Assembly (NCBI GenBank): GCA_036172245.1
Contig: JAYWIR010000012.1
Span: 744,001-808,000, forward strand
Reading direction: 5' to 3'
Source: Raillietiella orientalis
Lineage: Eukaryota
Length of the DNA stretch: 64,000 bases
In this document: piece after piece, positions 15,065 through 59,100 of the stretch
Layout of the letters: the number at the start of each line of letters is the position of its first letter
Position numbering within the stretch: position 1 is the first letter of the stretch
The notes under the pieces: generated by a model
Told to the model about the DNA's origin: nothing
The model's input: only the letters and a program-made list of their open reading frames with translations
Database searches by the model: none
Made by a program: the position numbers and the translations under genes

Positions 15065-18000
15065 TCAATTCAGGTTATGAATGATTATTTTCTCTTTCGT
15101 GGGAATGAAATGCACTAAATACTTCCTTAGAAAGAAGGTGCCGAAATACATATCTTCATCTAGCATCTGTGAACCTTCTTGGACCAGAAGTTCGCATTGA
15201 TCGTCTGAATCATCGTATGGATTCACCTGAAATCGACTCTCTCTCGTGTTCTTGAAGAAGGTGTGTTCCATTACCTTCCTCATGTAATCCTTGCCACTGA
15301 AGGTGAAATGATGTCCCTCTATGTCAAAGCTGAATATGGGAAGACGCTGCGCACGGGAACAAGGTACCTAACGGACTCGTTAAAACAAATCTACTGACAC
15401 CGGTTACCTACCTTTAAGAATTGACCAGCCTTGAGTGGTTTTTCCAACTGATCAGCAAATACCTTGAAGGCACCTTTAGTAAGCAAAATACCATCTCTTT
15501 CAAAAGAGAAAGTGGCAGAACATTGTTCCTTGCAGAGCTTCTTTGATCCTATTTTCACGCTGAATAAAGAGGTCAGTGTTTAGCAGGAAATAATTGGATA
15601 TCCTTTTGAAATCTCTTACTTTCTTAATGTGAAGGACCAAATCTCCTCGTCGACGCTGAGTAGCTCAACCCCATGGGGTTCCCCGTCGGAGAGTTCTATC
15701 GTGATCTTTCCAACTTCCTGGTTTTTACGTGATTCCCTGCAAAAAAGAGAAAATGGGTTAGAAAGTCGCTTCGTCGAGAGAGGCATCATCAGTTTTCTCA
15801 ATGACAAGAAATTCATACATTCATACATCTGTGAACGAAGAAAACCACGGGCATGAATTCAACCAACCACCACGAAAATCGGGTCCTTGAGAATAGCTTG
15901 AAGAAGCGCTGTCATTTGAGTTAGGGGGAAGAAAGATAATGGGGGACCTTGAAGGCCAGTCGTTCCTGGTTAGCCGTGTCAGCAGTTAAATCCATGCAGT
16001 TTACGAAAGTTCATTCTGTGTTAAAATCTATTTAAGTCGTCCTTCGCTCGGTTCCTCTGAGGTGCAATGAACTGCAGATTGGACCAAAAAATGAAGGATG
16101 CAACTAGTGCCATTAACATTTCCCATTCATGCAGGTCTGGTACATGGAAGCCCATGGAAAGTTCTCAACCCTTCATCGCCAGCGGAACCTGCTCATGGGA
16201 AATGTTGCTACACTTTGAGACTTCTTTCGTTGAAATCGGCAGTTCTTTCCTTTTTAGGAATTCATCAGCCAACAGGCTGCTGAATTCGTGGAAGGTCCTT
16301 CCTGAGTATCGAAAGCCTCAAACACATCCTCAATGCCACTCATGAATGCATTCCTAGTATCGAGAAGTTTCGAGAACACACGAACGGAAGTCGTCTCAAA
16401 GACAAAGAAGTGGAGAAATATGACCCCGGACCTCTTCAGGCATTTTGATTTCTTTTAATTGCTGGGGATCAAAGAGGTAAGTAGAAGGGAGCTCATCAGG
16501 CCGAACCAGGACGAATTGCGCACCCAGATGTGCACAAAGAGGAACAAAGAGAACAACCGGGTCGGCATCACACGAGTCTTCGGGTCCTTTCCGTTCGAGG
16601 ATGGAACAGGAAGGTGGAGCATGCGAAAGGGAATCCTGGAGTTCAGCTGCCCTTCCGTCGAAGCGAAGAGGTTCCTCCGTGGGTTCAGATTAAGCATGAA
16701 TACAGGAAAAGGAAAAAAAAAAATGCGGGGTGCGATTTCTTTGATTGCCTGCTGGTGGCAACCCTGTTTTGATGGACAGGAAACGACGCGAATTCATATC
16801 TCGAAGGATCGAAACACCGAAAGACCATAAAAGAAAACTACAAATGTGCATTACGTCTATTAGCATACGTATTTATATGTGCGAAAATATATTTTCTGCG
16901 GATCGTGAAAAATATATTAATATATGGATGAAGTCACAAAAATGTTTCAACATTCAAGTTTCTTGATATCCATCGGCAAACATATCCCTGGTATGATTAG
17001 TCATAAGCACATTATGAATGAAGTAAAGATAAGCACCAATTACTATACGTTGACATATCTATTCCATATGGGTTTATGTGAAAATCACTATATATTTAAA
17101 AAAGGAAGTTTGTTCTACGTTTGTATGTGGATTTATGTGGAAATTCATTCTAACATATCGTTAACACCACGTGTGAATATGTACGATTCGAAAACGCAAG
17201 CTTGTGTACTTCATACATATTAGCATACATTTCAACACGCAATACGTATTCATGAAATGAATATACGAATACCGAGTAAGAAAGATATCTATTTATGGAA
17301 TGATAGAAAGGCGGAGAATGGACTTGGTCATATCGAGCGGGGGTTTCGTTTGCTCAGAGTGGAAACTGACACGGAGATGAAGTACCAAATGGCTTGTTCT
17401 TGTTTATTCAAGTCATTTGCTTTCTCCTATTCTTTCCCCTTATTTTCAGCTGTCTTCACTGTTTCTGATTTTGGTGAATCGATATTTGTGTAAAAAATGA
17501 AAAATATCTTTTTAACATATTTTTATCGTGCGATATCTTTAGTGTGTGTACCGGAAAGTTATTAATGCATACGACTAATTGTAAAAAGGATATGTAAGCC
17601 AGGAAATATTAATAAATATGTGTGTGTAAATGAATTCGAATACTTATGTACATGCAAATGTAGGTCACGATGCATATACGGTTATTATTTAGTAAATATA
17701 CGAATCGACGCATTTGTATTGGTATATATCTAAAACATGAGCATTCTTTCGTAATTTTGATGTTTTGAAACCGTCCCGTTCCCATGGCATCCTGGGGCCG
17801 GCGGAAAAATAGGGGAGTGGAGGTAGGAATCGCGTGAGGAGAACCGAGGAAAGGAAGAGTGTTTGTGGTGCTCGGTTGAGGGGCCTTGCACACGTGGGGT
17901 GTGCCCTTTCCACCGCCAGATTACGGCGGTGCCTCCCTGTGCACCATGGAGCACCCCCTGCTTGTCGAAAGGGAGCTTCCGTTGTGGCTGCCGCGTGTTG

Positions 18001-19779
18001 GTGACGATCGGCCTGCGAACTCGCGAGCGCGTGCTCCTCGGGGAAACGACCGATTTCTCTCAAACGTCTTACCTGTGCCAGCTGAAAGTGTACTTCAAGG
18101 ATTGCGAGGGAGATAGCAGGCTGTTGAAGGCATTCAGAAACACTGCTGGTGCATGGTAGGCATCTTGGGAGGGCGGACTCAATCCTAGCAATCCATCAAA
18201 ATCTTGAGGAATGTCGGGAAAATATTTCTGTGAATGCCTTCCTGAGATGGTGATACCGACCGCTTTAAGAGATAGGTTTCCAGCCTGGAAGGATACAAGA
18301 ACTGCATTTTGCAACCGAAGGAATCGAAATTATTGGTATTTCCGGGTGAAGTATTTCGAATCTCCAGAATGAATTTCCAGGAAATAAGCAGAAGCACGAA
18401 GAGATTGCTCAAAACGCGCTTCAACCACCAGTTTCTTGCATGGGAGTACTTGCGAATGTTAAGCCAATAACCTCAGAAAATGCACAATTGCTCCGTTTTC
18501 AACTTTGTATGTTTCGTCCGTCCTCGATGTCTAATCTCTAGGTGGTTCATTGAATTCCGCGAATTAACCAAAGAGGTTGAGACCCAAGAGACAGAGAGGA
18601 AGTGAACAACTCTACCGAAGGAGGAGCTGAGAGCTCTGAATGGGCATTGGACTGCAGGAGAACGCACCTGAATGTCTTCCTTTCCCACAGAGTCCACGAA
18701 TAAGGAAGCGGCGACTCCTCCGTCATTGTGCGGATGAAACGTCTTTGAGTCGGTTGGTTTGTATCCATGAATTTCACCTAAAATCCAAGCTCTGTTATCA
18801 CATGTCTTAGAAGACATATGTGTTAGCACCATTATTGTTTTTATATTTATTGTTCACTTCCGTAATAATCGAAAGTTCGTACATCTCTGCACTTGGCAAA
18901 ACATACACAGTCCTTCGGGGCTGCCCTATTTGTAACTTCACGTAGTTGTTCTGCAAGAGAGAAAAGGATGCTCAGAAATAAATATTTGCGGATTTCACAC
19001 GCAAATTCATTCATCTGTAACGCTCGCTTTTGCTCCTTTCGCACCCTTGCAGACAGCAGACATCGCAGAAGACATTTCCATCACCTTGCCAACATGATTT
19101 TCATCCCAAACTCAATCCGACCTACGAAACGGTCCCTAATGGCTGCTCCCCCAAGCCGAGCTGGATGGATGATCTGTGATTATAAAGAGCAGCGTCTCGA
19201 CATCTTTCCGCGGGTGGCGCGAAGTGGTCGTATGAAGCGAAAGTGGACTGCATGTACGGAAACATCCGCTATGCCACGTCGTTTTCTACTCAATGGACCA
19301 TCTTTACTTCTCAGATTACCCTGCAGCATGAAGTGCGTTTCGCGCAATCTCGAAACACCCCTTAGAGCATTGCGTAACTTTGGAGCGTTTCCAAGGAGTC
19401 GACGCACAACCACCAAAAGCCATGTGATCCTACGGCGCAATGACGGAATCTCCTAGAAGATAAAACGCGAATCCCTCAATCCTTTGAAAGAAGATCCCTT
19501 ATATCTGACGCCTTTCTGCGCTGCTATCCACGGCTACGAGGCTTCGAGCTAGATGCGTTCAACAGCTTGGAAGCCAAGACTGCTGTTGGGATGATGTGCT
19601 CACCAAGAGCTCCATCACACCCTGGGTTCTATGCAATAATCTTTGAATCGAGTGCGCTGATTCATCTACTCACCGTGCCATCACTGAAGATGGGTATTTC
19701 GTATATCTTGGATGGACTGCGCTGATGGAGAGACTCCAGTAAGGATGACTCTTTGAAGGGCATTCGAAGATGAGGTAAC
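15065..19779 (-). CDS. Spliced pepsin-like (peptidase A1 fold) protein lacking both catalytic DTG/DSG motifs; first exon unresolved
   Basis: Exons 19779-19674, 18950-18830, 18777-18668, 18284-18073, 15736-15620, 15559-15412, 15367-15275 and 15226-15065. All GT-AG, phase-consistent, no internal stops (~355 codons). Motifs YVKLQIGQP, YKPTDSKTF, FDGLLGLS, GKITI, VKIGSKKLCKEQCSA, VPCS...LPIFSFDIEGHHF...DY and FGTFFLRKY. Confidence 0.85.
16800..17770. mobile_element. AT-rich ~1 kb insertion in the long intron of the left protease-like gene, possibly an old MITE/foldback
   Basis: Sharp drop in GC. The left intron is 2336 nt vs 1563 nt in the right paralog. Weak inverted similarity between the ends (tcgaaacaccgaaag...tacaaatg vs the reverse complement of the 17700-17770 end). 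Confidence 0.4.
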
Positions 19780-22700
19780 CTGACAACGTCAGAGAATAAC
19801 AAATGCAATTAGTCTGGGAAATTGGTACTGTCTGCGGAAGACGACGTTTCATGCAAAGCACAGCGGAGCAAAAATTTTTTGCTTTAGCGTTTTCGGAAAT
19901 TATCGTTTACCGTGGAGGAGACGAAAGCACGTGCAGATCGCTTTCAAATCAGAAGGCAGTGCTAACGAGGAATCCAAGGAAAATTTCATTCCATTCCAAT
20001 AAAAATAGATACTAAAGAAAGTCAATTGATTCTTAAATGGACGCGAGAGCGCTTGAAAAGCCAGGTGGAAGATGACCGCGCCTACCTTTCTTTCGTGCAG
20101 GCGCGAGTGCTCAAAGGATCACGCGAGGTGGGCGCGGAAACCGCGAGCGCGGTTCCTCCAGCCCGAGTCGTGCACAAAAGCAGCGCCCACGATGGAAGAG
20201 AGAGGGACAGGCGAGTTCCCGCGTCAGTGAGAAGGGAGGAAAATATGGTGCGAATGCTGCATGCAACTCCTGGTGAGCGGCATCTCTGCGTAAGCGAGAA
20301 GCACCCGTGAAACATGTGGACAGACTCGTTTTACCACGAGGGATTGCGGATACACAGGAAGCGAGAACCCAGCTGCAAGTCCCTTGCAATGGACCAACCA
20401 ACTCGCTTGCACTCAAAAGTTACGGAAATTCCTCCATGTTTTGTAAACCAGGGAGGGCATTGTCCCCAGTTATCTCAAGGCACCCGATCCCTTCGTAAGG
20501 AGTGCGCTTTTCCTACGCGGATCAGCCAGTTATGGGAGGGAGATGCGTGATGGAAGGGGCAGATGGCACTTTCAAGCAAAGAATCTTTGAAAAAGTGCGC
20601 AGCAAGAAGTGGGATGCAGAGTTGTACCTTGAGGCTTCTCCGAAGAAATAGCCGGCGTGGACGAATAGAAATACCAGGAGAGAATTCATCTCAACTGTGC
20701 TGAGCTCTTCCTGTAAAGAGATACGTATGAGAACGCAGGTCAAAAGCATTGGATGTGTCCGCTCCAGCAATAGCGTTTTGCGAAACCCAATGGGCAACGA
20801 ACGGATACGGTCATCGCAGAGATGTCATTTCAACGTCGAAATGCTCAGAGTACGGTTGACTTGGCTGGCATCAGAGGTGGAATTTCTTGCATCTCAACTT
20901 GTTTGGCAATCCGCTGCTCTCTTCGCAGATGAGGAACCGCATCGTTAGCAAGGCTAACCAGAAGACTGCTCTGTTGGGACGCGCAAAAGGGGATGTCGTG
21001 CTGCTCATTTGCCGCACCACGGGCGGCAACACGGCTTCTAGGAGGGTACGGATTTCCCATCTCCTTTCCTGTGGCGGTGTGCTGATTTTTCCGGCGACTC
21101 CATAAGCGGTACTTCAAGTCGATCCTTGGAGAATCAAAAGTTTTCCTGAAGAGAGGAAACGTTGCTGCTTCTTCTGCGCAAAACAACGAGCAGAGAGCTG
21201 CGGTTGATGCGGAGATGCTTTCACGAGAAGATGCTTCCAGCTCGCTTCGATGAATGGAGCTGGCATTTGCTCTGCAGCCTTCCCTTCGTTCCATCAGAGA
21301 GGAGAAGGTACGAGCTGCCTGAGCACCAGAGGTCCGTTCGTGGATGGATGCAGGCTTGTTTTGACGCAGCAGGCGCTCTGGTTGTCCACCAGGCTCGAGC
21401 TGCGACGCTATTCGCGAGACGCTTTCCATGTGAGTCCAGTTTCTTTTGCATGGCATCTTCGGATTTGGTTTATCTGATTCAGAGACGTGAATGCCGCTTT
21501 TGTCATTCTGATTGAAAATGGAAAAGCGGTGCAGTCCTGAATTCAGCTTTGGGCAGATGCACAGCAGCGACTCCGCTTGGGTCTTGCAATGGATTGATGG
21601 CAGATGATCATATGGAAAGCTGACCACATTCAGCATTTCCATTTCTTTAAGAGCTTCTAGTTGATTCGATTTCTGGTTGAGGGCAATTCAGTCCAGGCCT
21701 TGTAATAGTGTCGAAGTGTAGCGAATTTCGCAATTATTCACTGTCATTCATCGTCATCAACTGCTTGCCGTAGCACTTGGCATTTTTTCCGAGATACTTT
21801 AGCTTTTACATCGTTTGCTTAGAACCAAAAGCTGATATCCATATTTACCTAAGAGGAGTTGTGCTGCCGGTTGGTTGCCGGAGAAGGGTTGTTGGCTTGT
21901 GGAAGTTGAATGGATGCCCGAGTGAGAGCTTCAGGTGACACAGATGTCCTGAGACGGAGCACCGATGAATGTGGATAATTGAAGCAAGGAAAGGGAGCAA
22001 ATCCGAGCTGGGATCGACGACGGGTGCCGTTTTGTCTTCTTTCTGCAGGTGGTAATACCTATGAGAACGCAGAGCTTGGATGCCACGTTCTTCAGGGGCA
22101 TTCATCTCGTGTAGGCGATTTTGTATTCTAATGAATTCATCTTCTTCCTTGTTATGCGCGACTGTGAATCGAATTCTCGTCCAAGTGCAAAACTTCGTTT
22201 TCTTGGAATCCAAGTGTGAAAGAGGAATAATTGTCATGATTATGTGTGGGTGTTTTCTTGGGAGTCAAAGCCACAAATTGGCACTCGAAAATTTCGTGTG
22301 GGTGATGAATTCGTTTTATGAATGGAGGTGGAGAATTGAGGAATGAAATATTTCCAGTCTCAGCAATGATGAGAGTGAAATTTGCTTCGGATGAATACAC
22401 GCTACCATGCGGGAACGCACATTCTGCATTGAAGTCGTTCCCGATATAAGGATGATGGCGATCTTTGACGGATTGTGCGCATGCTGCCTTCTGACGACTT
22501 CGATAGCAATTCCTATCAACAAGTCGGTCAAAGAGGTCAATCTCGAAGACCTGAAAAAGTTACGCACAGAAAAATAGCGCCTTCTTTTCTAATCAGTTTA
22601 ACTAAATTAGGGACATCCACAGCTTGAGGCGTCTGATAACTGAGGCAAAGTTATACAGCAGCACCGTGTCCTCAACGTGACTCTACTTGCTTCCTTTGAG

Positions 22701-24503
22701 AGGAGATTACTGCTACAACGTTGCAATCTGATAACTGAAACACTTTCTATAGTCCTTTCAATGAAGAACATTCTACAGAGTTCAGAAGCACTTTCTTGCC
22801 TTCATCTGGCTCCAAAGGATTTCATTCTTGGATGTGACTGTATTCCTTTAAATTGGTTGTTCCATATGAAGTTCTTTCACTCAGCGCATCCTCGTGTTGA
22901 TCACAACCGATTAACAAGAAATCGGTCCAGAAGAAATGCTATACGCTGAGAACCAGCTCAGTAAAATTTCCTCTTTCCTCATCTTCTATGTGGAAAGAGT
23001 AACACACACAAGCAGGGTAGCTGAGCTGAGAGTCTGTTCTCTCTACTAGCGGCTGACCACCGATGCCGCCTCGAAACAGATCTTATTGTAGTTTCCATGG
23101 CAAAAACGGAACTGAAGAACCATTTGCAAAAATAAGTAGAAAAGATCATCCAACTGCATTCTGGAGACAGCCGAATGCAGTTAGACAGGTTGCTTGCCCT
23201 CAGAATCGCGAAAGCAACCGAGTTTGTTTGCTGATCATCCTCTTTGATCATGGAAAGAAATGCCCACGTTGTTGCTTCCCTTCTCTAAACTGTTTTAATC
23301 AGATCAAACTTTGCTTTTAGGTTAGGATTGCTGCCAACTCCATGAATCAACCCTTTTAGAAGAAGCAACGCAGACTTGCTACTGTCGGCTGTTCCCTCTC
23401 CTTTAAGACTCTCTTCAAGACGAGAGGAAAATCCTTTTTTAGCACATATCTGATAACGGCCCCCACAGCCTACTTGTTTGCGTTTCTTCTCACTGCAGAG
23501 GAAGCGTAGAAGTATGAAACTGCAGGTCAGTAACGCCGAGAGCAAGGTTTCCGTTTCCTGACGCTTCCGACATCCAAAAAAAATGCGAAAACGGCTTCAG
23601 TGTCAACCCTACTTCCAGCGACTTCTGAATGAACCAGAACAGAAGAAGCTGCACCCCAGATTTTCATCCTTGTCTTTGTGTTCGGAATTTTGGATACCCT
23701 CTGGACCTCCCCCCTCTCATCATCGCGCAGATACGGAGCAATGCCAAAGACCTTTCAACAGTCTTTGAGCCATGATCAACTCTTCGATGTATGACAAAGA
23801 ACCATTAAGAAGACACGCAATCCGAGTTCCTGCTGTAGCTTCGGAGATTCTCACAATCTCAGAGGAGCGCTGGTCGGTTTCGTGGACCATGTCCTCGTTA
23901 CCATTCGGAAGAATTGCTCATTTGCAGAATGCATATGAGTTCAGAACTTTGCGTATTGGCGTAAAGAAGCTCACCATCAAATGCTCTTTAGTAATGTGTG
24001 CTCCATACGAGAGCCATCAGGGAGAGCGTGACTCAGACTCAGACTTCGTTTAGTGCACCGTGGCAATACTCTCGGGACGAATGGAACCGATGAAAACAAG
24101 AGGCCACCATCAGGAAAACGAAACTCTCCTTTCGGTGCGCGCATGTCATATCTCTTTCTACCGTTTCATAATGACTGCAGTGTGACCACCTGTATGAGAT
24201 GCTGCCCTTGTCCTACTGGAAAGCAGTCAAATTAAAGTTTCGACGGTGGCGAAAGTGAGTTTGCATGAAATATAAGCAGTATTTAAACGCGTACAGTGCT
24301 TGGCAATCCTGAGGAGCACCCAAAGTGCGCGATGAGTTCAAGAAGATTTAAGATGAACGCAAGCATGCCTTCCATCTGAGGGTCCGTAAGTAGAGACATC
24401 CGGTAATGTACATGTGAATGCATTGAAGACAAGCAATGCTTGGTCCATCCTGCCATCTCCTCTTATCACAATGCACGTGAAGCTTTCTTAGAGTTCAGGC
24501 ATC

Positions 24504-33300: not shown

Positions 33301-33399
33301 ACCTTTCAGCTCACCATTTTCTTGAACATCTTAGTGGAGAGATTAGGGAATGAGGACATGAGGGATCTTGAGGGATCTTGCTCAGGAGGAACAACACTT

Positions 33400-37329: not shown

Positions 37330-38500
37330 TTTATCACCCAGATATGCCGGAGCGTTTATTATTAAAATTTTTACAGAAAAATTTTTTGATAAAATCTTTA
37401 AATTATGTTTAGGCGGAACTCGTGGTTCTTCCTGTCTTGGGACACTTGCAGTTACCGACCTGCTGGTCGGTGAGGTCCACTCTGAGGGCAATGGGGACGG
37501 GAAAACTACAAAAAAATGAAAAAAGAAATTAAACAAACATAAGAGGAGAGGGCAATGTTTTTTGGAAAGGGGAGAGCAGGGAAGGGATCACCGTTTGCCG
37601 CGAGTGGTCTTCTGAATCCGGTTGTGGATGCGGACGAGTGCTGATCGTAAACTGCTTAGCCGTGACCTTCGGGAGGCTTTCTCAATGTTGATTGCAGCCC
37701 AGTGAATGGTGCTCCGGCTGTTTTGACCTCTCATAGACGCAGACCATTTTGCCAGCATTGTGCGCATGCAACAGAGAACTGCTACAAACGCGGCTGCTGA
37801 CAGGGTGCCCTGTGTCAGGAGGCTACGAAAAATGTCCTTCGGGTCGCCAACCGGAATGTTCAGGATCGACGAACGTTAATTATTGGGTGCGGAAAGGTTT
37901 CTCTTTCTCTGCAACTGCACAAAGGACATCCGCACTTCCAGTGAAAGAGGCGTGCTCTGCACAGGATTCCCTAATGCAGGAACAGCAGCGCCGTCTCTTG
38001 CTGCTCCAGGAAAAGGGTGCCGTTATCCCTACGCGCTGGGGGCCACTTCACCTCCTCCGGAGGTTTTGCAAGCAGCTCACGCCAGCAGAAGTCCTTTAGG
38101 AAGAACGCTCGGAGATGGAGCGTCCGCCAGCTTCCGAGTTGTCCTTCCGAGCTGTCTACGCCTTTAACGATTTTTTCCTGCTTCTGATGAGGCAGGACAC
38201 TTCCCACATTGCCCGTCCGTCGCTGTCCCTAACATTCCTGAGGGAGGGCAGCACTGGGGCAAGGGGGGCGGAGGAAGCCCACAGCAGCTTGCAGTGGTTC
38301 ATAATTTCCTGCAGGAGCTGACGAGAGTATCTTCCCCGTCGGAGGCAGCTGTACTTGGCCTCGCTCGAGTAGTTCATCTTAACCCACGCGGAAACTGACT
38401 CCTGATGCCAGGCGGTACAGTTCGTGGGGAGGCAGGAGATCCACGTATTTTTCCTTACCAGGGCAACCATCTGACGCAGTTCATGGCCGCAGCTGGATCG
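37330..38500 (-). mobile_element. L1-like 3' end fragment
   Basis: KNTWISCLPTN, WRELLAKPPEEVKWPP and QETALLFLH; GGGAAGGGATCA at ~37579; terminal AATAAA-hairpin at 37330-37360. Confidence 0.85.
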
Positions 38501-38689
38501 ATTTGGAACACTTCAGAAGAAAATATCCCAATCGAGATTTCTGATCGCACGCACATTGCGCACGGCACTCTGCGCGGACGGCTTCGTAAAGGCAACCCCA
38601 CAGGAGTGCTGTGGAAATGCAGCTATGTAGAATTCATGGATTTATTTCATAATTCCTTCCTGCAATCCCGCCAGTGTATCCTTCCCTCA

Positions 38690-44199: not shown

Positions 44200-45735
44200 T
44201 TTTCACCCAAGTAAGCCGGGGCTTTTATTATTAAAAATTTTACAATTATGTTTTTTATAATAAAGTCCTGTCGTCTGTACTAGTGTTTCAGTCAGAACAC
44301 CTTGTTCGTATTGTCTTATGCACTTGTCCTTTCCGACCCGTATGCCGGTAAGGTCCTCTTCACTGGCAAAGGGGACGGGAAAAAGAGAAAAAACAAACGA
44401 ACAAACAAAAAAAGAAAAGCGCTTGGGGGACAATGTTTATGGGGAAGGGATCACGGTAGCCGTGGGGAGGCCTCTGCATCTGGTTCCGGATGCGAACAAG
44501 TGCTGGCAGGATTTTCCTCAGCCGGCGCCAACGGCTAGCCTTCTCCATGGAGATGACTGCCCAGTGGATGGCATTCCGACTGCTGGGGCCACTTATCGAC
44601 GCGTTCCACTTATCCAGTATTCCTCGTATGCAGCAGAGAACTGCTACACACTCGGCACCTGGCAGGGAGTTCCGCATCAGGAGGAGACGAAAAATGTCTT
44701 TAGGGTCGCCCACCGCTACGTTTATGGCCGACGAGAGTCGATCCCACGTTCGGCTGAGGACAACACATTCGATGAGTAAGTGGGGGAAGGTCTCCCTCTC
44801 CCCACACTCTGTACAATGGGCATCCAGTCTCCCCAATGTCCAGTGAGACAGGCGTGCTCTGCTCCAAAGTCCCCAATGGAGCACAAGCAGCGCCGTCTCC
44901 TGCCAATCCAAAGGGAGAGTGCCACTGTCCCAATACGCCGGGGGCCACTTCACCTCCTCCGGAGGCATGTCGAGCAGCTCGCCCCAGCGCACAATTCCAT
45001 TTGACGGGACGCTCGGGGTTGTAGCGTCCGCTAGTTCCCGGGACGTCCATGCCTTCATTAGCTTTTCCTGCCTCCGATGAGGCAGGTCACTTCATTCGAT
45101 GCCTCCTCTTGGCTGTCCTTGGCTACTCTGAGGGAGGGCAGAACGGGGGCAAGGGGGTGAATGAAGCCCACAAAAGCTTTTGTGGGTTGGAGACGATCTC
45201 CCTCAGGGGCTGGCCAGCGTTCCTGCCTCGACGGAGGCAGGGGAATTCCACCTCGCTGGAGCCGTTGATTTTTGCCCACGCGGAAACGGACTTTTGGAGC
45301 CAGGTAGTTTAGTTTGCGGGGCTTCAGGAGATCCACGGGCTGTTCCTCACCAGGGCCACCAAGTCCCGTAGCGGAAACCCATAATGGTTCAGTCTACCGT
45401 CGTTGGCTACTAGGATTGAGGTCAATCCGTTGCAGCCGGTTGCCCTGTGGGCGAGGAGTCGTGTGGGCGCACACCATGGTGCTGTCCAATATTTTGCCTC
45501 AAGGGCAAGTTTTCTAATTTGAAGCTGACGCTCCATGCGCTCCAACGTCAGGAGACCAAGTCCACCGTCCCTGCGTGGAGCACACAAGTGTTTCAGTCGG
45601 ACGCGGGATCTCCGGTTACCCCAAGGGGCTTTCCTGATGAGGCCCCTTGTCCGTGTCCCAATTTGGAGAGGGTCGGGGCACACAAAAAGTAGAAGGCGAA
45701 GGAGGGTGACCACAAAAGCGTTCCACTGCATTGAT
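44200..45735 (-). mobile_element. L1-like 3' half (RT thumb to CCHC and 3'UTR)
   Basis: RVRLKHLCAPRRDGGLGLLTLERME and CTECGERETFPHLLIEC; terminal AATAAA-hairpin at 44200-44229. Confidence 0.9.
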
Positions 45736-47149: not shown

Positions 47150-50100
47150 AATGAAAAGAAATAAGCCGACATGTCTGTCGAGACCGAATTTCAGCAGCAA
47201 CAGTGATCGGATGACAAGTGGAAGGAGGAAAACCCGAACAGCCATGGACTTGCCAGTGTTGCAGCGAGGTCTCGGCTAGAGAAGAGACATGAACTACCCT
47301 TCACACACGTTGATGAGCCCAGCAAGCTCTGAATTTTTCAACATCCTGTAGGGATTCACCCGATTTGCTCTTTGTTCTTGCACCTACGGGGCAATGAGTG
47401 AACTCGAAGTTTTTTGATACGACAGTTTTCAGAATCGTCTCACGAAAGATTCGTCGTGCTTCAAGTTTTTGCCACCAGGTGCTGTCAGAATGAGGAACGA
47501 GTGGAAAGCGAGCGGTGAACCAGAAAAACACGTCGAGGATCATGGAAACGACCTCAGAGCGTCGGAGTCATGAATTCACAGTAGATGCGATGCGGTTGTC
47601 TTCAGTATGCAGAAGCTGTTCTCAAAGCATCCCCTGTATTCAAGCAACGGAAGGAATCCTCCTATCAAAGCATTGCAACTCCATGTTTCACGGCTCTAGT
47701 AGAATGCACCAAATTGGGTACTGCTCATTTCTTTGGGAGAAGAGAAAAAGTGCTGATTTTTTCCTCCCTAGCACGATGATATGCAGCCTTTTTTACGAGA
47801 TCTTTTGTCATTGCCATGATCTCCTTCATAATTATCTTTATGGCTAAAGCAACCTTATTTTGAACATCATCTATGAAGCAGGATCACAAGTGATTCCTTC
47901 GACTTGCAAAGAATATCTGATCTATTGGCACTCAAAGGTGATGCCAGGTTGAAGCCAGGTTTAGAGAGCTTTGTCGCTGACTCGAGCTATGGCAAATGTA
48001 GTTTCATTTGCGTCTATCCATTTTTTTTTTACTTTTTCCGGAGAAAAAGTTTACCATTATTCTCTGGAAGAATTTCCACCCATCATCCTAATCCCCTCTT
48101 CCAATTCACAGAAGAATATCTTTGCAGTAACGTTTCCGCAATGCTTATCGTGACATCATCTCTTCCTAAATAAATACATGCTAATGATCTTCGTGAAAGA
48201 TCTTGCTGCCCTTCCTGTGGAACTTTCATAGCCGTGCAAAATACGTTCACAAGCATAGTAGATTGCCTATTAGAAAAAATGATGAGGAGTCCTACATCAA
48301 AGTGGCACATGCCTCGCTTAGGAAATTCTGACTTTCCTTGTAATCCTTCACAAGTTAAGAAGGCGAGAAGTTTTCGACAGATATGTAGCTTAGGATGGAG
48401 AGCTCCTACGCAGGTGCTTTTACGTCAAGGTAATAAGATATCTTCCTTGGAAAATGCTTTATGTCATTACGTGGAACATTCTGGGTATTCAGAGAAACTT
48501 CTTTAGCAAACAGGGACATTGAAATGAATTTCAAGGTAACAACTGCGCAAGTTGCGCATATCTGCTCAAATGCTCTTTTAGCAACCCAGCAATAAATTCA
48601 ATTTTCCAATAAGGAACATCGGATGATCGAAACTTTTCTGAAAAAGGTCCGTTAGCACGAAAAACCTCCGTGATGTCATCCTTGTGGGTAGCAGGAAGTA
48701 CATGCGGATGAAAATGCTGCTTCTTCGTTTGCGAGTGACATCCGGAAAGGATGATGGCCTCTACGTTTCTGCGACAGCAAGTTATAAAACTGCACATTGC
48801 AACATGCACCTGAAGCACTTGAATAGGAAGCTCTTCGACACACATCAACGCGATTCTGAAAGCGCCAGTGAATTTTGCAATGGCGTAGTTGATCTTTTTA
48901 AACCCCACTGGGGAAGGGTACCATGGTGTTATCCCGCGCCAGGGTTTACTCACCTTCCTCCCTATAGAAATACATGGTCAGAAGTTCTGGCTTGGAGGAA
49001 TAATGGGAGAACTGAGAAGTCACTCCAGGAGGAAGGCACGCTTGCATTCATTCTGAATCATGAGCTCAGCGCACGCTTTGGGTGCTCCTTAAGATTGCTA
49101 AGCCCTGCGCGCGCTAAAATGTTCCTTGTATTTTAAGGAAGTTGTACTTCCTTTACCTCCGAAAGTGATATACTTTGATTCGCCTGCTTTCCAGTAGGAC
49201 AAGGGCAGCATCTCATACAGGTGGTCACACTGCAGTCATTATGAAACGGTAGAAAGAGATATGACATGCGCGCACCGAAAGGAGAGTTTCGTTTTCCTGA
49301 TGGTGGCCTCTTGTTTTCATCGGTTCCATTCGTCCCGAGAGTATTGCCACGGTGCACTAAACGAAGTCTGAGCACATCACGCTCTCCCTGATGGCTCTCG
49401 TATGGAGCACACATTACTAAAGAGCATTTGATGGTGCGCTTCTTCATGCCAATACGCGAAGTTCTGAACTCATATGCATTCTGCAAATGAGCAATTTCTC
49501 CGAATGGTAACGACGACATGGTCCACGAAACCGACCAGCGCTCCTCTGAGATTGTGGGAGTCTCCGTAGCTACAGCAGGAGCTCGGATTACGTGTCTTCT
49601 TAATCGTTCTTTATCATACATCAAAGGGTTGATCATGGTGCAAAGGTCTTTGGCATTGCGCCGTATCTGTTTAATGATGAAGGAAGGAAGGTCCAGACTT
49701 CGAAGAGGGTCAAGTGGAATTTTCCAGGGCTCCGGTGAGTTTCGTTCCCTTTCTGCTTTCTTGCGCTCGACTGACGTTTCAGCAGGCCATCCGCGCCCGT
49801 CGAGAGCAAGTGGTTCTCAGCTTCACTTTCAGAACAAGAAGTTTGAATTGCGCCTCATCCACAGCGTGTCGCTCCCACGTCTATTCGGGAAACTACAGTG
49901 GACCATTTCTTGTCCTTTGGTTCTTCTGATCGGGTAAAAGATTGGACATAGGATCAAAGGCATTCCTGCCTTTTCGATCCTTGGACATAGGATCGCTTGT
50001 ACAGGTCGACTCCTTGCTTTGTTTTGGGCTCAATTGCTTTTTTGAAGCCCATCTGGAAGGGGCGACAATTTTTCTGCTCTTTGCAAACCCCCTGAAAAAA

Positions 50101-53100
50101 GCACACTGAAAAAAGAAGGGCTGTCAGTGTTTGTTTGTTTCCTCTTCGAGTTAAATTCTCTTCATGAATCAGTTTTGCAACCCAACCACACACTGTTAGA
50201 ACCGATTTCCAATAAGTCGACTTCGCTCAAAGATTCGTGGACTTCCATTAAGCAAATGAGTGACAGAGATAGGAAGTCATTTAAGAGTACTGTGCCCCTG
50301 AGCGTATGATCCTGCTTTCTGATCCTGCTTGATGTTTTCTCTTCCTTTATCACCTGAACTGAGAGAGCATTTCCCTCTCTCCATTCGAAATTCCATGGCT
50401 GCTTGATAGCCATCCTTTTCTGTGCCTTCGCAATGAAAGCTCACTCGTCACAAGATTAATGAGAGAAGGGAAGGCCAAAGCACAGTAATTGTATTTCTCG
50501 TCAGGAACCGTTGCGCTTCCGCAGCAGTCAAAGCTTGGAGCCTTTCCGTCTTCCTAAACAGAGACTGGCCAACGATTTCCACGTATTTCTGCGTCGCAGT
50601 TACGTCAAGTCTCGTGTGTCAGGACCGAGTCCATCTGGAACGTCTTCAATTTTAGGACGTTTCAGCAACACATTCCTGGACAATATAATGTTGCTCTTCT
50701 TAACGCAACTACGCGATGCTCTGCACAAGTGTTTTCTGCAAATGAGCAGTTCCGTCAGAAAAGATATTCTGGAAGTCTCAAAGATAGGTGATAACATGAC
50801 TGAAGAGAGAATTGTCCGGAAATAAGATTCCTCCAACCTTCGCAGAAAGAGGGCACGGCACAGAAGAACTGAGGAGGGTGCAAACTGCAAATAAAAAGAG
50901 AACAAAAGGTGTAAATAGGAAGCTCCAGTAGGAAGTCACAGTAGGTTTCCAAGCGAGCTGGAATCGGCAGAACTCATGGTTGTTTCAATGCAAGGAAATT
51001 CAAGGATCAACAAACTTGTGATTCCTAGGGCTCATGGAAGCAAAAAGAAATAAATCACTGATTCGGAAAGCATTTTAAAGTCAACATTCCTGCAGAAGTA
51101 ATCCTCCTATGTTGCTAGGATATTTCATCATCCTTGAACTCTCTCGTTCTTGCAGCCTCATACGATTCAGCGGAATCCATGTAATGCCAAGCTCATGTAA
51201 TAATTTTTAAAAGTTTCAGGAAATGCATTTCGAATGGTACGTATGGATTCAAATGAGTGATTCCAATCTGCCTTTCATGGTAGCACGCCAGTTTTCTTTC
51301 TTTTTCCTATGATGATGCTCCCAGGAAATCACATGCAATGTCAAGCACAATCCGTTTTCTTCTCTGTGCGTAGCGTGCTGTTGTACATTCTAGATAGGAG
51401 AAAGATATTCTGGAGAGCATAAGGATAATCCATGAGTGGATCAGTGATGGCAGTGTGAAACACCACATATCTTTCACCCGTCTACCAGCCGCAACTTCGC
51501 TGTGACCACAAACACATTACAAAAATTCGATTTCAGATCAAACATTAATGAGGATGAATGCTGGCAACAAACACCACTGACCAGATAAGGAAAATTGAGA
51601 AAAGCGACATTCACTCTGCCACGGATGACGTCCCTGATACTGAAAAACTTGTAGGTGGTATTAAGCAAGGGAACACTATGAAGTAATCACTGGACTTACG
51701 TAAACCATGCATGCATTCACAGACATTTTTCAATGCTAAGCTTGATTGCACGATACTGGCGCACCTGTTGAACACCAAGAACACGGAACCCATCAAACAG
51801 TGGTGAGAACACCGTAAAAAGAGAAATATAGCTCTTTAATGAGAACATCACAGAGACCAAGGGCCGTCTTCACCTGAAAAATGGTAAACCGCAAATCTAG
51901 ATAACTGTCAGGAAAACGTCACATTGCACCTTCCAGAAATAATGTCAATAGAAACAACCCTGGAACTGTACAATGACCAGTCGGGAATTTCTTATGCTCC
52001 AGACTCCAAAGAGCCTGGCAGATGCCGCGCTCACTTAACTCGGAAAGCCTTCGGATGGTTTCAGCTCATCTTCATGATGAAACTTCTTCAACTTTATGCG
52101 GATGGAGTGCTAGCCGATGATTAATCAGCTCCAGGAAACTGTGGAATCGAAACTGCCTCCTTCCCCATTGCCTATGTTGGAACCCATTTGATAGAATCTC
52201 TCGAAGAACGCGGCTGCATTTAATCGATAAGAAGAGCGAAAAGCTTCATTAATTATGAGAGTGGATCGGAGAGGACTCGTTCGACTGGACGAAACCTACC
52301 ACTGCCAACAGCATTTGGATTTAAAATTTGAAAGCCTACACGAACATATGAGCTCATCACATCCCAAGGTACCCTTCGAAAACTTCCTCTGAAATCCAAA
52401 AGATTTACTATAGCAGCCCAAGAATATAAAAACCAATAACTCACTGCCTCAAACGGAAGAAGGGCTGCTGAGGGAAACTGCTGAACTCAGAAGCTCGTCA
52501 TTAGCGTGCACAGCGATCATTTCCTTCATCAAAAAGAGCCATTGGCATTCTCTCCGTGCTTAAACTGTGGACATGATCCACACGAAATTCCTATGTACTG
52601 AATGGTTGGTACTGAAATCCATGCATCCAAAAGTTCCGAATTCATTCCCGAAACTTTGACTGCAAAATACTGCAGCTTGCTATTAAAACGAGAATTGGAA
52701 AAGACGAGATGGAAAGTCGGGCCAAGCAATGAGTAAGATGAACGAGCTGCAGGAGCAGCATGCACCTGAAAACCGTAACACCCAAGCACTACGTTAAATT
52801 TGGTATTATCACCTGCAGAAAGATGACAAAGCAACGCACGTCCTCGATTCTAGCTCAGATCCCGTCCGCCTCCTCAGAGCAACCTTTCACGTTCATCTGT
52901 GTGTGTTCTGAGGATCATTTGCGACCATTGAAGATCCTGCTAGGACATCCAGTCAACTGGTCCAAGGCGGTCGCTGCATCCCAACATCGTTCTAGAGCGC
53001 AGAGCATACAGCTGCTGGATTCGTTTCAGGTAAATATGAATCAAAGACTTCTACTTTTGTTTCCCATCAAATGACGTAAGGATAAAGTCTCAGAATAAAA

Positions 53101-56100
53101 GCAAAGCCGACAGCAAACAGTTGATGATGATCACATGCAGTGATTGATTGAAGAATTAGCTGCACCCCAACGCGGCTGCAAGGCTACGACTCGATTGCGA
53201 AAAGAAAATGCACAAAAATGACCGAAATCATTCAATAGTTTATAGAAATCAGAGAATGATAAATGCAGTGAGCCTTCCATGTGGTCACCTGACACTCCTT
53301 TATAGCAAGGCCGAGATGAAGTCGCAGTTTAGCATTGGTCTGAAGCACAATCGAGGACTGTACCACTTTCAGAAGATTTTCTGTCAGAATGAAGAAAAAC
53401 TTGTTGAAATTTTGAATCATGGAAACTGTGTCCAGAAGATGCCATGCAAAAGAAAGCAAGTGTGGATCAGAAGCAGCGTTGCAAATCAATCCTAATGGAT
53501 AACCAGCAAGTCTGTGCTTCTAAAATTGATCACATTGCCCGAAGAGGGGACCTCTGTTATTCTGGCAGCTCCTACCTTTTGTGCATTGCTGGAAGGTCAG
53601 TGAGGGTAGTGAGCAAATGCATTCACCGAAATGATTTCAATACATCATCTCTTCTCAAAGAGACCTCTGAACCAACTCCCGCTCTCGCTTCGTTGTTTTG
53701 GGTACGAAGAGCAGAAACATTTTCTACCTTCCGGAATAGTTCTGGTCCAGAAGCTTTGGGAGCGCCTTTCGCCTCCTGAACGTCGTGCTTCCTCCAGTGG
53801 TACAACAGCTGATCAGCATGGTTTCCTCTTTCGTGCATCTCAACTGTGCACTCTGATGGGTAGCCTTGCAAACGATGCGACTTCTCAAGATCCGTTCTCT
53901 TATCTGCGAAGAGTGTAGCAGATCCACAAACAGGTTGCACTGCAAATTCAATTGGAAGAACAGCGACCCCTGCGGGAGACGGACTGATTCATTCTGCAAA
54001 ACATTCTGAGTAGCATAGGAAAATAGCAACTCTGGAAAAATTGTCCGATTACTGTTCATCTTGCTAACTGCTCCTTGGACCCACAAAGCAAATGCTTTTG
54101 ATGGGCGTTCTCATTCGATCCTCCTTTCAGGAAGAGCTCAGCGAGCAGCAGCAGATTTGAGATGAAGTTTTTCCTGGGATTCCTCTTTGCTCACGTCGGC
54201 TGTCTCTTAGGAGAAGCCACCAGGTACAGCACTGCATCTCACATTATTTTGAGCACTCTTCGAGAGTTGCTTCTATGGAAGCTCTGCATATGCGTCTTCC
54301 AACGCGCATCTCCCTGTCTATAACTTGCTGATTCCAAGGGTTCGCGTCTCGAGACCACAATTCTCAAATAAGGGTTGGATGCTGATTTCAGTACACAAAA
54401 TGACGTACGAATTTCGCTGACCTCTCATTAGAGAAAGTTTGGTCAGTCAATTTCATATGATATAATCCCATGATTTGCAATTGGGTACTCTCTTCCTGTC
54501 TTGTCGGAATCGCTCGTGGTGCAACCCGGATGGAGTTGCATACCTCACCTTCACCACAACTTCCTGCCTTTGCGCTGATACAGGAGCCCACCTGTGCCTC
54601 TCTTCATCATATGTATTCTAAGACTCGGGCTGGAGGAAGTGCGCGGGTGGTTTCCGCGACCACCTTGCTTTCTCGCAGGCACGTGGGTGCAACGAGAAAG
54701 CAAGGTATGGGAGGTCGCCTTTTTCCTCGCTTTCTCTGGTATGGCGTTTTTTTCTGAGACGCTCTCTTCCCCATTCGAAGACTGAATAAACCTTTTCCTT
54801 TCTGATTTGCATTACAATGGAATGGTTCACTTGGATTTTGCATTAGCAGTGTCTTGCTCTGAGTTGAAATTAAATTGCACGTGTTCTCCTTTCTTCCATG
54901 GAAGCAGATTCCAAAAGCGACCAAATAGAAAATTTTCCCCATTGTCTGTGTGAAAGTCCACTTTCAATTTTCCAAACTGACTGCAATCTTATTCCATCAG
55001 GTTTTCTTATCTTGGAACGCCCTCGGAGAAATCAGAGGTACTGCGCGCTGTCCATGAGGAAGGGGAATTGAATTACATGTGCCCTTGCACGGGCAAGGAA
55101 GCAAGAAGTCGAGTCAAGACGTATGAAATACCCATCTTTAGCGATGACAGGGTGAGTGGATATACAAGTGTATTCGAGCACCAGTGGTTATGGCGCTTCC
55201 GATTAGCACACCATTCTAACAGCAGTCTTGACTTCCAAGCTGTTGAACGCATTCAACTGGAAGCTTCGTAACTATCGATACCGGCGCAGGAAAGCATCAG
55301 TTAGAAGGGGTTCAAGGATTGTGAAATTCGCGCTTCATCTACGAGATTTTATCATTGCACGGGAGGACCACGTCGCTTCTGGTGGTTGCGCGTCAACTGT
55401 CCACGGAAACGCTTTTAAGTTAAAAGGTGGCCTGGGCGGCGTCCCGTGATTTCGCAGTGGCTGCTTGATGCTGGTGGGTAATTTCAGAATCGCAGATGGT
55501 TCCTTGCGTCAACAACCACGAGACCAATGGGGTGCTTCGGTGCATTTCGTACACTCGCACTAGGATCTTGCACCACTCGAGAAAGAGTTTTCAGACAACT
55601 CTGTCTGATCACGGATTGTACGAAATTAAATAAGCTCCGTATAGGAGAGCACCTGTTCAAATATGGTGGTATCGTGGGTGGTCGGGAGTGAGGAGAACAA
55701 TGTGGTTACCGTGGGTGGAATCATGGAGCGATGTCTTGTATTTTGAGCGCGTGCGAAATCGAACGTTACAGAGGGTTGATTGAGCGTATGGAATCCGCAA
55801 GAATGCCCCGCTGAGCTTCTTTTTCTCTTTTGCAGAAGCACTACTTGAAGATGCAAATAGGACAGCCTCAGAAAACTGTCCTTCTTCTTCCAACTGCGGA
55901 AATATTTGACCTCATGGTTGTTTCGGATGATTCCTCTGATGATAAAGGTTATCACCGTAACTTTCTAAAAATGAAAACGAGCAAGTTTTGCTTTTCAGAT
56001 AAAACTTCGAAATATAGAACTTCCAGCTCAAAAACGTTTATACTGCAAGAAATGGAAGAGGCAGTTCATGATTTAGCAGTGGACGCCATTGGAAAGGAAG

Positions 56101-59100
56101 AGATTAAAGTGGGTTCTCGTGGAGATATTCTGTGCTTATTCATATGCCCTCAGTCCAGGAGCCGTTCTGATGGCTCCTTGACCGAGCAGTCCGGTTGTTC
56201 AACAGCGAGATTCTTTGCTTCCTTAACGGCTTTCAAATCTAAAAACTCTTACTGAAATTCCAATGCACCACCTAGTACTTGCATATCTTAAAAGGATGGA
56301 TTGTTTAAGCCTGAAAATGGGAAAAATTGCGCATTTTCTGTGGTCCCGTTCACAACATGGGAAACTTTTTCTGTGCTAGTACTGGTGGTTGGATAGTGCA
56401 AGTGCATACGCGCTTCTGAGCCTCGTTTAGAGAGACTCAATCCGCGCATTTCAAGCTTTGAGTTCGGAATACGAAATGCTTCTATTCTTCCCGTTGGAAA
56501 ATGCAACTGTTGTGTACTTTTAGGTTGCAGATCGTATTTTCAGAAATGTTACTTTCACCGTAGTGAAGAGAAGTGAAGCTGAGAACATAGGGATTCCTGA
56601 AACGTTCGATGGGTTCCTAGGACTCAGTCCACCTACCATGCACGCACATCTGTCGACGACAGTATTTCTTTACAAATTCTCACACCTGATACCTTTTCCG
56701 CTAGGCATGAGGTTCAGTTTTCACTGGTACAGGTAAGATGCTGAAGAAAAATGATTCATTCCTATGAAGAAACTCATGTTCTTAAAACGAGTCCGCTGAT
56801 TAGCCCCACTGAATTGCTCGAGATGAGATTGCCTTTTTTTCTTCTTTGTCGACAAAGCAAAGTTGATGCTGGCAACGTCTTTTATATGCTAGGAAGGAAA
56901 TTGCACACATAACATCCGGCAAGCTTCTGATCGAAGTACAAGGAGCCTTTTTTATTTTTGTACATTTCATTCTGGCCGAACTCGACTCACGTGTCGGAAC
57001 CACGTGAGTCCTCTGCTTGTACGAGCACAGTAGCCTTTCTTGAGACAGAATCCATGAAGTCAAAAACGGCTCCAGCAGCAATCAAAAGAACTCCTTTTCC
57101 TAGTTTCTGCTTTTTTTTCTTCTGTAGCCATGCGTAATCAGAACTCGTGAGGGAAACATTTTGCTTTCGAGAAAAGGCAGCTGAACTCCCTGATTCTCTT
57201 CCGCATGCTCTTCCTGCTTGTTTCATTTTCATAGACTTCTGTGATGGGAAAAGATTCCTGTTGCTTCATTTGTTCCCACTGTGCGCACCGTAGATGCGAG
57301 GTGCATCCTGATTCGTCCTGCTGATCTTCCACTCACTCTTGCCATTAATTTCAAGCAAGAAAGCCAAATCAACACTTTTGCGGAAACGCAAAACACGACG
57401 AGCAGGTTTTCCAATTTGTCTACTTTTGGATGATTTTTGATTGTGGTTTCTCCAAACTTCTTGATAAATTCATAAGCTTAATTGAGATTGTCGCAGAGGA
57501 CTTTGATCTCCATGAAGAAGCCCAAATACAATTGCAGTTTGCAAATGAATTCAAAAAAAAACTGCCGAGTTCAGCGGAAGAAGACTGTGATGTAGTAACA
57601 CATTGCATGCATCGGTGGTAGTTGACGACGGAGCAAGAAGCATTAGCAGGCCAAAAATCACAAATTCTTATACGTTGGCGTGAAAAGCCCTTTGTGCAGA
57701 GTTCGTGTCTCACGAGCTCCTGTTGGTTTGTAAGACTAATCGCGCCTTGGAGGAAGACAACGGTGAGCACATGGTGGCTGAAAAAAGCGCAAGTTTCTTC
57801 GTTGGTAAAGGGTTACAAACTCAACGTCAGTTTCGATACACTAGCCCTCCCGGAGGTTGCAAAGTCGTAAAGGAAGTTCACGCACCCTCGACCATTTGGG
57901 TCGATGTGCAGTTCGTTGCACGTTGGTAAGGCTGAGAAGACACGCCGAAGGAAGACAACAAGAGGGCAAAGGACGAGTTCTTGTTTGCTATCCAAAAAGC
58001 ATGCTTGCTTGTTGGCAACCGATGTTGATTAGAAACCAAGAACTTCATAAAGGGATCCAGTGAAGTAGCTGCGAAACCAAACTAGAAGCAACTTCCTTTA
58101 TCAGCTTCTTCTTCACTAACTCAAATGACAGTGCTTTCCTCAACCTACTTTGAAAGACCGGATTTTCGTCGAGGCTAGTTGACCCTATGGAAGCGATTTT
58201 TTCTCGTTAGAGATGGGTGAATTTTGATCATTAGAACAACTGATGACGCCACGCTTGACGTTTGCACTTTCCAACCGCTTCCTTCCTTTTTGCAGGCGGC
58301 CACACGGAAATCGCTCAGTTGGAAAGCTTACGATCACAGCGAAGAGGCAGAAAACCGATCCAACCGATCTGCAAATAACCAGCATAGACCAAACATCATG
58401 GATGCTCATGACTGAAAAGTAAGAGATTGTAGACAGATTTGTAGGGAAGTTGCTGACTATTGTCATTCCTTTTGCTAAGCGTGAAATTGGGATCAACGGA
58501 ACTCTGCAGAAGCCATTGTTCTTTCCGTATCTTTTTCGACGATCGTGGTCTTTTTTTTTCCAAGACTACTTACCAAAAATACTCTGAAGGCATAGAAACT
58601 GGAAATAAGAATGGTAAAATCATAGAAGTAAGCAACAAATGTCAGTAGATTTGCTACCACGAGACTGCTAGGTACCTTGTAACAGATCTGAGGATGTTCC
58701 CGAATTCAGTTTTGACATCGGAAATCATCACTTTAGCCTTCTTAGTTCAGATTACATGGAGAAGGTACTGTAGAAATTTCATTTTCGGAAAGAACACAGA
58801 AGTGAAACGATTTCAGGTGAAATCATCCCGTGGTACAGAAGATCTATGCGAAATACTGGTCCAAAGTGATCCTCACCTGAGAGTGGGAGAATTTGGAGTG
58901 GGAGACACTTTCCTGAAAAAGTATCAAACAGAATTTATTCCCATGGAAAGAAAGATGATCATTCGTGGCAACAATTCATAAAGGAATGTCGTTAACAACT
59001 GTCGTGAAATGAAAGTGAATTTTCTTTGAACCCCTGATGCCTGTCATTGGCCTGCATTTTCACTTTCTTCAGTTTACAGGAGCAGATAAACGTCAGCGGA

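Follow-up and report, generated by a model that had tools for sequence, protein, structure and literature searches.

Pepsin-related proteins that are dead as enzymes are known from cockroaches, ticks, the ruminant placenta and plants, and their roles are mostly unsettled. In plants, the TAXI-type xylanase inhibitors, EDGP and basic 7S globulin are pepsin-fold proteins that inhibit or bind instead of acting as proteases; they belong to the A1B/TAXi lineage, with many extra cysteines. Among arthropods, Bla g 2, Per a 2 and Lma-p54 of cockroaches are secreted homologues of the pepsin family (A1) without peptidase activity, for which a binding role has been proposed (PMC3116508 and PMC9541408). 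Bla g 2, whose group is cited as MEROPS A01.950, has Phe at position 75 and substitutions in both DT/SG motifs (PMC3116508). A measured instance of binding instead of cutting is provided by RmPAP of the tick Rhipicephalus microplus, which has a signal peptide, does not proteolyse haemoglobin and binds it with a KD of ~3e-8 M (PMC6345952). In mammals, many of the pregnancy-associated glycoproteins have substitutions at the catalytic centre, and their genes have nine exons and eight introns (PMC3116508 and PMC2682831); the latter gives nine exons and eight introns as the usual structure of mammalian aspartic peptidase genes. Here we describe a pair of genes from Raillietiella orientalis that appears to belong in this company. 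Both lie in a stretch of 64,000 nucleotides (positions 744,001 to 808,000 of contig JAYWIR010000012.1, assembly GCA_036172245.1), which is referred to as the window and numbered from its first letter.

In the reading that we consider probable, the pair consists of two old, head-to-head inverted duplicates of one gene, which are intact and encode secreted-looking A1 homologues that have lost the catalytic apparatus and probably act as binders. Each protein, of about 380 residues, would comprise a signal-peptide-like start, a short N-terminal segment and an A1-homologous domain. The skeleton of this domain would be retained in the form of the IGxP motif, both hydrophobic-hydrophobic-Gly motifs, two C-lobe disulphides, the C-terminal strands and the spacing of the landmarks, and the catalytic apparatus would be gone, with both Asp-Thr-Gly triplets, Trp39 and Tyr75 missing and the flap shortened by about 8 residues. 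Proteins of this kind would be secreted and adopt a pepsin-like fold with a more open cleft; they would not hydrolyse peptides by the aspartic mechanism and, by analogy with the described cases, may act through the binding of a ligand or peptide.

The inverted gene pair

Two stretches of the window, the minus-strand segment 20758-14450 and the plus-strand segment 54083-59540, align with each other as an inverted pair, with ~60% base identity in exons and introns alike. The genes that they contain, gene 1 (minus) and gene 2 (plus), face each other with their 5′ ends across a spacer of ~33 kb and point outward. The gene models were built from the comparison of the paralogues and from the splice consensus. 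Both loci splice into open frames with nine exons separated by eight introns, with products of 376 amino acids (gene 1) and 390 amino acids (gene 2); all splice sites are GT-AG (32/32; 16/16 GT and 16/16 AG), and the intron phases are identical in both genes. The exons are as follows.

Gene 1, exon 0: 20628..20689, minus strand; start codon and signal-peptide-like segment MNSLLVFLFVHAG..., 62 bases, donor AAG|GTACAA; from the script scan, in frame with exon 1
Gene 1, exon 1: 19674..19779, minus strand; short N-terminal pro-like segment, ends in KIYEIPIFSDGT
Gene 1, exon 2: 18830..18950, minus strand; IGQP at 18929-18918, and site-1 triplet SAE at 18893-18885 at the position of pepsin Asp32-Thr-Gly, placed by spacing relative to pepsin
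Gene 1, exon 3: 18668..18777, minus strand; SKTF and the shortened flap segment at 18736-18698, 13 residues, no Tyr
Gene 1, exon 4: 18073..18284, minus strand; FDGLLG at 18200-18183, the first hydrophobic-hydrophobic-Gly; profile match to A1
Gene 1, exon 5: 15620..15736, minus strand; start of the C-lobe (..VGKITI.., ..IWSF..); not recognised alone
Gene 1, exon 6: 15412..15559, minus strand; CKEQC at 15534-15520, and site-2 triplet SFE at 15507-15499 at the position of pepsin Asp215-Thr-Gly; not recognised alone
Gene 1, exon 7: 15275..15367, minus strand; VPC..FSFDI..HHF..DYMRK; Pfam Asp match below the cut-off
Gene 1, exon 8: 15065..15226, minus strand; Cys equivalent to pepsin 282, YFG..FLRKY, stop TGA; part of the exons 7-8 profile
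Gene 2, exon 0: 54162..54223, plus strand; start codon and signal-peptide-like segment MKFFLGFLFAHVG...; from the script scan
Gene 2, exon 1: 55001..55151, plus strand; N-terminal segment, 15 codons longer than that of gene 1, ends in KTYEIPIFSDDR
Gene 2, exon 2: 55836..55947, plus strand; IGQP at 55857-55868, site-1 triplet TAE at 55893-55901
Gene 2, exon 3: 55999..56108, plus strand; SKTF and the shortened flap segment at 56040-56078
Gene 2, exon 4: 56524..56732, plus strand; FDGFLG at 56605-56622
Gene 2, exon 5: 58296..58418, plus strand; from the paralogue and the splice consensus
Gene 2, exon 6: 58480..58627, plus strand; CRSHC at 58505-58519, site-2 triplet FFD at 58532-58540
Gene 2, exon 7: 58672..58764, plus strand; VPC..FSFDI..HHF..DYMEK, followed by a 52-base intron that contains a TAG and, compared with gene 1, an insertion of 4 bases
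Gene 2, exon 8: 58817..58981, plus strand; GVG..FLKKY, stop TAA

Exon 0 comes from a script scan of ~6-7 kb upstream of each gene for an ATG followed by a hydrophobic core and a donor site in the phase required by exon 1. Three of the five hits represent exon 0 (two alternative ATGs in gene 1 and one ATG in gene 2), and the remaining two both lie upstream of gene 2 and have no counterpart in gene 1. The exon, with its Met and hydrophobic core, is found at homologous places in both arms (20689-20628 in gene 1, 54162-54223 in gene 2) and its 3′ end is in the phase that exon 1 needs; 11 of 21 residues are identical between the genes, and the base identity of 76% is the highest value among all exons. 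The segment that precedes the mature-like start is short and poorly conserved between the genes.

Five introns are very short, among them those of 52/51, 60/61, 44/44 and 48/52 bases (gene 1/gene 2), and stop codons and frame-breaking indels are confined to the small introns. A length of 44 bases is very short for an animal intron; the short introns were accepted on the grounds that the two copies share conserved boundaries at either end and that the frame depends on them. Gene 2 was also considered as a pseudogene, as its plain open reading frame (ORF) appears to be broken by a TAG stop and a 4-base insertion relative to gene 1; this was rejected, since both features lie within intron 7 of gene 2, the 52-base member of a conserved 48/52-base GT..AG pair. 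Likewise, an additional exon at ~19455-19325, between exons 1 and 2, was rejected: its counterpart in gene 2 is interrupted by stops in each of the three frames, and the phases of exons 1 and 2 fit together directly. A tblastn search with both spliced proteins against the 64-kb window found no third copy. The count in both genes, nine exons with eight introns, is the same as in the usual mammalian A1 gene, an agreement in number.

The initial annotation of the window had described two eight-exon genes at 15065-19779 (minus) and 55001-58981 (plus). These outer limits are exact for exons 1-8 and the frames are open as proposed, and the addition of the upstream exon 0 brings the number of exons to nine. 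The shared intron positions that it reported stand, and the phases are identical and the boundaries GT..AG throughout; the strong divergence of the proteins, which are identical at 139 of 372 aligned residues (37%), stands as well.

A1 homology and the former active site

A profile of exons 7-8 from both genes, compared with the chains in the PDB, matched 48 chains, every one of them A1 (48/48), at the C-terminal 250-320 region; renin was best with an expectation value (E) of 5.2e-6, 21 chains had E < 0.01, and Bla g 2 was matched at 1.3e-3. The equivalent profile of exon 4 likewise matched A1 chains exclusively (17/17), aligned at pepsin 117-142 by way of the FDGxLGL motif, with weak scores (best E 0.13). 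The Pfam Asp model aligned to exon 7 of gene 1 over profile positions 237-272, with an E of 0.003 in the read-through ORF and 0.078 for the exon alone, both below the family cut-off. For the N-lobe, the ESM Atlas clusters nearest to the read-through of exons 2-3 of gene 2 were PF00026/TAXi_N, with a score of 0.94. As judged from sequence, homology to A1 is established for exon 4 and for exons 7-8.

Several elements of the A1 skeleton can be recognised outside the former active site. In A1 proteins a hydrophobic-hydrophobic-Gly motif follows each active-site motif (psi loops; PMC3116508). Both are kept here, as LLG/FLG after FDG and as YFG/GVG before ..FLxKY, placed by hidden Markov model (HMM) alignments and by eye. 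The CxxxC motif (CKEQC/CRSHC) corresponds to the C-lobe disulphide pair of pepsin at 206/210; in both genes cysteines occupy the equivalents of 206, 210, 249 and 282, and none is found at 45 or 50. Paired as in pepsin, these cysteines would retain the two C-lobe disulphides, and the N-lobe pair 45/50 would be absent.

The positions of the catalytic residues were located by setting the spliced proteins against the numbered pig pepsin (Additional file 1 of PMC3116508) by eye, with the HMM alignments of exon 4 and exons 7-8 as anchors. The distance from IGxP to FDG is 98/94 residues (gene 1/gene 2) versus 97 in pig pepsin, that from FDG to VPC is 131/133 versus 130, and that from the second Cys of CxxxC to the Cys of VPC is 39/39 versus 39 (Cys210 to Cys249); over the whole length the landmarks are at most 4 residues off pig pepsin. 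By this spacing, the position of Asp32-Thr-Gly is taken by Ser76-Ala-Glu in gene 1 and Thr91-Ala-Glu in gene 2, and that of Asp215-Thr-Gly by Ser261-Phe-Glu and Phe274-Phe-Asp, respectively. No D[TS]G motif occurs anywhere in either spliced protein. In the alignment by eye, the position of Trp39 holds Ser in gene 1 and Met in gene 2. The flap stretch from SKTF to VDxxG counts 13 residues versus 21 in pepsin (~8 short), differs almost entirely between the two genes and has no Tyr, hence no Tyr75, which according to PMC3116508 is retained by all active pepsin-like enzymes. Because the catalytic residues are absent, ordinary aspartic catalysis by either protein seems very unlikely.

It is important to point out that an acidic residue lies two positions after each lost Asp, at the positions of Gly34 and Gly217, in all four cases (Glu78/Glu93 and Glu263/Asp276). 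Conceivably, the proteins are still hydrolases with a rebuilt site, in which these residues would provide a carboxylate pair or a metal site. If the register at site 2 is shifted by two residues, Glu263/Asp276 would fall on Asp215 and ..ILLT../..LFFS.. on the ..SLLT.. of pepsin; moreover, A1 relatives without one Asp can still cut, as cited for the tick protein BYC and for a Plasmodium protein in PMC6345952. However, the 39-residue cysteine spacing, identical to that of pepsin in both genes, favours the unshifted register, Tyr75 has disappeared along with a portion of the flap, Trp39 is missing as well, and the exon that carries site 2 evolves at an approximately neutral rate. We give a rebuilt hydrolytic site little credence.

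The motifs quoted in the initial annotation (IGQP, LPSAE/LPTAE, FDGLLGL/FDGFLGL, CKEQC/CRSHC, ATFSFERDG/FRIFFDDRG, VPC, FSFDI..HHF..DY and FLRKY/FLKKY) are all present, and its observation that both D[TS]G motifs and the flap Tyr are absent is borne out by the landmark spacing relative to pig pepsin. Its further claim that both motifs were lost entirely holds in that the triplets are replaced; the loss is less clean than this wording implies, given the acidic residue two after each lost Asp and the shifted register that can be drawn at site 2. The assignment to A1 is upheld by sequence for exon 4 and exons 7-8; the exons with the active-site positions are unrecognised alone, and the Pfam Asp matches of single exons lie below the cut-off. 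The interpretation in the initial annotation is supported in part, and the bilobed fold and the binding, decoy or inhibitor role that it proposed are putative.

Maintenance and divergence of the two genes

The two copies bear clear signs of having been maintained. Exon lengths differ between them by 45, 9, 3, 6 and 3 bases and otherwise not at all, all multiples of three, and only 17 of 61 gaps in the introns are multiples of three. In a neutral simulation of the gene 1 coding sequence, none of 3000 copies remained open, whether substitution was set at 20% (mean 9.4 stops) or 41% (mean 15.9 stops); therefore neither gene copy has been free to drift for long, and neutral decay of genes 1 and 2 is excluded. 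Purifying selection on the residues is weak. The proportions of synonymous and nonsynonymous differences (pS and pN) are 0.517 and 0.383, which yields a ratio of nonsynonymous to synonymous divergence (dN/dS) of 0.61 (bootstrap 0.47-0.82), and the identities at the first, second and third codon positions are 0.56, 0.66 and 0.54; in exon 6, the site of the former second triplet, pN (0.43) is about equal to pS (0.40). The initial annotation had inferred that the genes are selected and had proposed the dN/dS between the paralogues as a check. Selection is evident in the intact frame, the splice sites and the fold skeleton, and at the level of residues it is weak.

A number of results weigh against the interpretation of the pair as maintained, secreted A1 homologues. 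With one alignment method for both, identity is 59.3% in exons and 61.0% in those parts of introns that can be aligned, with a shuffled baseline of 42%, and dN (0.54) is near the intron distance, so that residue constraint is slight. Exon 0 is signal-peptide-like by a hydropathy rule only. The tests for A1 were run on single exons or on exon pairs reading through an in-frame intron. Of 17 single-exon pieces compared with Pfam, the two exon-7 pieces alone matched Asp, below the cut-off (17.5 bits for the single exon versus 19.9). The ESM Atlas match of exons 2-3 is weak, with a recognition value of 2251 (mark 2300) and 149-158 shared features (mark 170), and exon 6 gave a best score of 0.86 to lipase-like clusters, taken as chance, and no A1. 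In the PDB, exon 2, exon 5, exon 6 and the pair of exons 2-3, each made into a profile, drew one or two chance-level hits and no A1 chain. In protein collections restricted to longer proteins, relatives were found neither by a word-seeded search with the exons 7-8 ORF nor by the exons 7-8 profile at E up to 10, and an exhaustive phmmer search of 1.84 billion representatives, with a query that included 16 intron-coded residues, returned none at E 0.001. Finally, the residues at 32 and 215 were judged by eye from spacing because the exons with the former sites are unrecognised as A1 alone. AlphaFold models of two contiguous read-through fragments had a mean predicted local distance difference test (pLDDT) score of 38.9 and 39.1 and were unusable.

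The absence of recognition in several exons could mean that the A1 likeness is restricted to the C-terminal third and that the N-terminal half is unrelated or re-modelled, so that no two-lobed pepsin fold exists; this would agree with the four PDB profiles (exon 2, exons 2-3, exon 5, exon 6) that found no A1 chain. Yet the exon with FDGxLG matches A1 chains only, and at the correct place, the landmark spacing stays within 4 residues of pepsin over the full length, the clusters nearest to the N-lobe piece in the ESM Atlas are PF00026 or TAXi_N (weakly), and the nine-exon architecture fits A1. An A1 likeness confined to the C-terminal third appears highly improbable.

The slight residue constraint bears on whether one or both copies might be recently dead or never expressed, long functional after the duplication and by now silent relics that still lack a stop. 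The dN/dS of 0.61, the similar identity of exons and introns, the near equality of pN and pS in exon 6 and the lack of relatives in the protein collections could all be taken in this sense. Against this, no stop interrupts the 376 and 390 codons, each of the 32 splice sites is intact, and since 20% of neutral change introduces on average 9.4 stops and left 0 of 3000 copies open, any silent period must have been short. Silent relics are an unlikely explanation.

The interpretation of the pair as intact, catalytically dead A1 homologues is consistent with a picture in which frame, splice sites and fold skeleton are kept and most of the protein surface is changing fast. The fast divergence suggests a binding surface that is free to change or driven to change, and by analogy both proteins may be secreted binders that use the opened cleft. 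A bolder scenario, to which we attach only a slim chance, is that the pair belongs to a fast-diversifying family of secreted proteins, specific to its lineage and with a pepsin fold, in which a carboxylate two residues downstream (xAE, xFE/xFD) has taken over from the dyad in both lobes and the flap has been cut back. The open cleft would then hold a new acidic or metal-binding centre for ligand capture or unconventional hydrolysis, perhaps in settings of conflict such as reproduction, immunity or interactions with symbionts.

Divergence is not uniform along the pair. Exons 0-1 and introns 0-1 (20689-19674 / 54162-55151) have a dS of 0.44-0.45 and introns that are 64-67% identical; most of the 3′ part is more diverged, with a dS of 0.58-2.6 and long introns 57-59% identical. 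The milder divergence of the 5′ part would fit later, partial gene conversion. Intron 1 contains a block, 19553-19585 (minus) / 55220-55252 (plus), in which 32 of 33 bases are identical against a background of ~65%; it has a stop in all three frames within or soon after it and a small CTTGG..CCAAG inverted repeat inside, and is possibly a conserved intronic regulatory element. Rfam found no family in the window, this block included. In intron 0, a core of 17/17 identical bases, 20153-20169 (minus) / 54622-54638 (plus), lies inside a GC-rich conserved block of ~45 bases, and a conserved AAG|GTA donor-like site follows ~70 bases further on; this may have a regulatory role or represent an alternative 5′ exon.

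The window is eukaryotic in character, with debris of long interspersed nuclear elements (LINEs) that contains endonuclease, reverse-transcriptase and zf-RVT domains. The 33-kb spacer holds LINE fragments, including a lone zf-RVT piece, and one weak TMEM135-like ORF, for which no further exons were found nearby on the minus strand. The other match in the list below, to the Crisp domain, is probably due to chance.

4970-11567 and 44363-45091: remains of LINE-type retrotransposons, from domain matches
5882-8302, plus strand: ORF of 807 residues with RVT_1 and zf-RVT, part of the LINE remains
8400-11567, minus strand: ORFs with a zinc knuckle, an endonuclease and the start of a reverse transcriptase, part of the LINE remains
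37591-37875, minus strand: ORF that matches TMEM135 in its cysteine-rich N-terminal region, below threshold (E 1.3e-4, 23 bits versus a cut-off of 27)
38484-38633, minus strand: ORF of 50 residues with a weak Crisp domain match (E 0.0015, 19.5 bits versus a cut-off of 27)

Comparison with known pseudoproteases

Active A1 peptidases (renin, cathepsin D, pepsin, chymosin and plasmepsins) are the best matches of exons 4, 7 and 8, and they have in common with genes 1 and 2 the spacing of the landmarks, the cysteines of both C-lobe disulphides and the hydrophobic-hydrophobic-Gly motifs. Unlike these enzymes, genes 1 and 2 are without Asp32, Asp215, Tyr75, Trp39 and Cys45-Cys50. Their N-terminal segment, of only ~25-40 residues, is also shorter than the pepsinogen propart, which has ~44 residues. 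Both genes match animal-type A1A chains, and the TAXi_N domain of the plant lineage appears only in the weak ESM Atlas listing.

Bla g 2 resembles genes 1 and 2 as an A1 homologue with altered catalytic motifs, and its chains are among the matches of the exons 7-8 profile (E 1.3e-3). It is not specially close to them in sequence, as renin scores better. In comparison with Bla g 2, genes 1 and 2 have whole triplets replaced and the N-lobe disulphide gone, and no residue can be placed at 75, with a flap that is ~8 residues shorter. The proteins RmPAP, BYC and THAP of Rhipicephalus microplus are likewise arthropod A1 homologues with an incomplete dyad; in PMC6345952, these tick proteins lose only the second Asp and BYC still degrades haemoglobin, whereas genes 1 and 2 lose both. 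The ruminant pregnancy-associated glycoproteins (MEROPS A01.971), for which binding has also been proposed, form a large, lineage-specific family of duplicated A1 genes with nine exons, as in genes 1 and 2. They are mammalian and placental and recognisable as A1 over their whole length; genes 1 and 2 have diverged much further and retain neither aspartate.

Overall, the pair represents an extreme case among these proteins, in which both aspartates, the flap Tyr and Trp39 are lost and the protein changes nearly as fast as the introns, with frame and splice sites strictly kept. Seen in this context, genes 1 and 2 would be very diverged members of the known class of A1 pseudoproteases, and on their own they add a member to this class rather than a principle.

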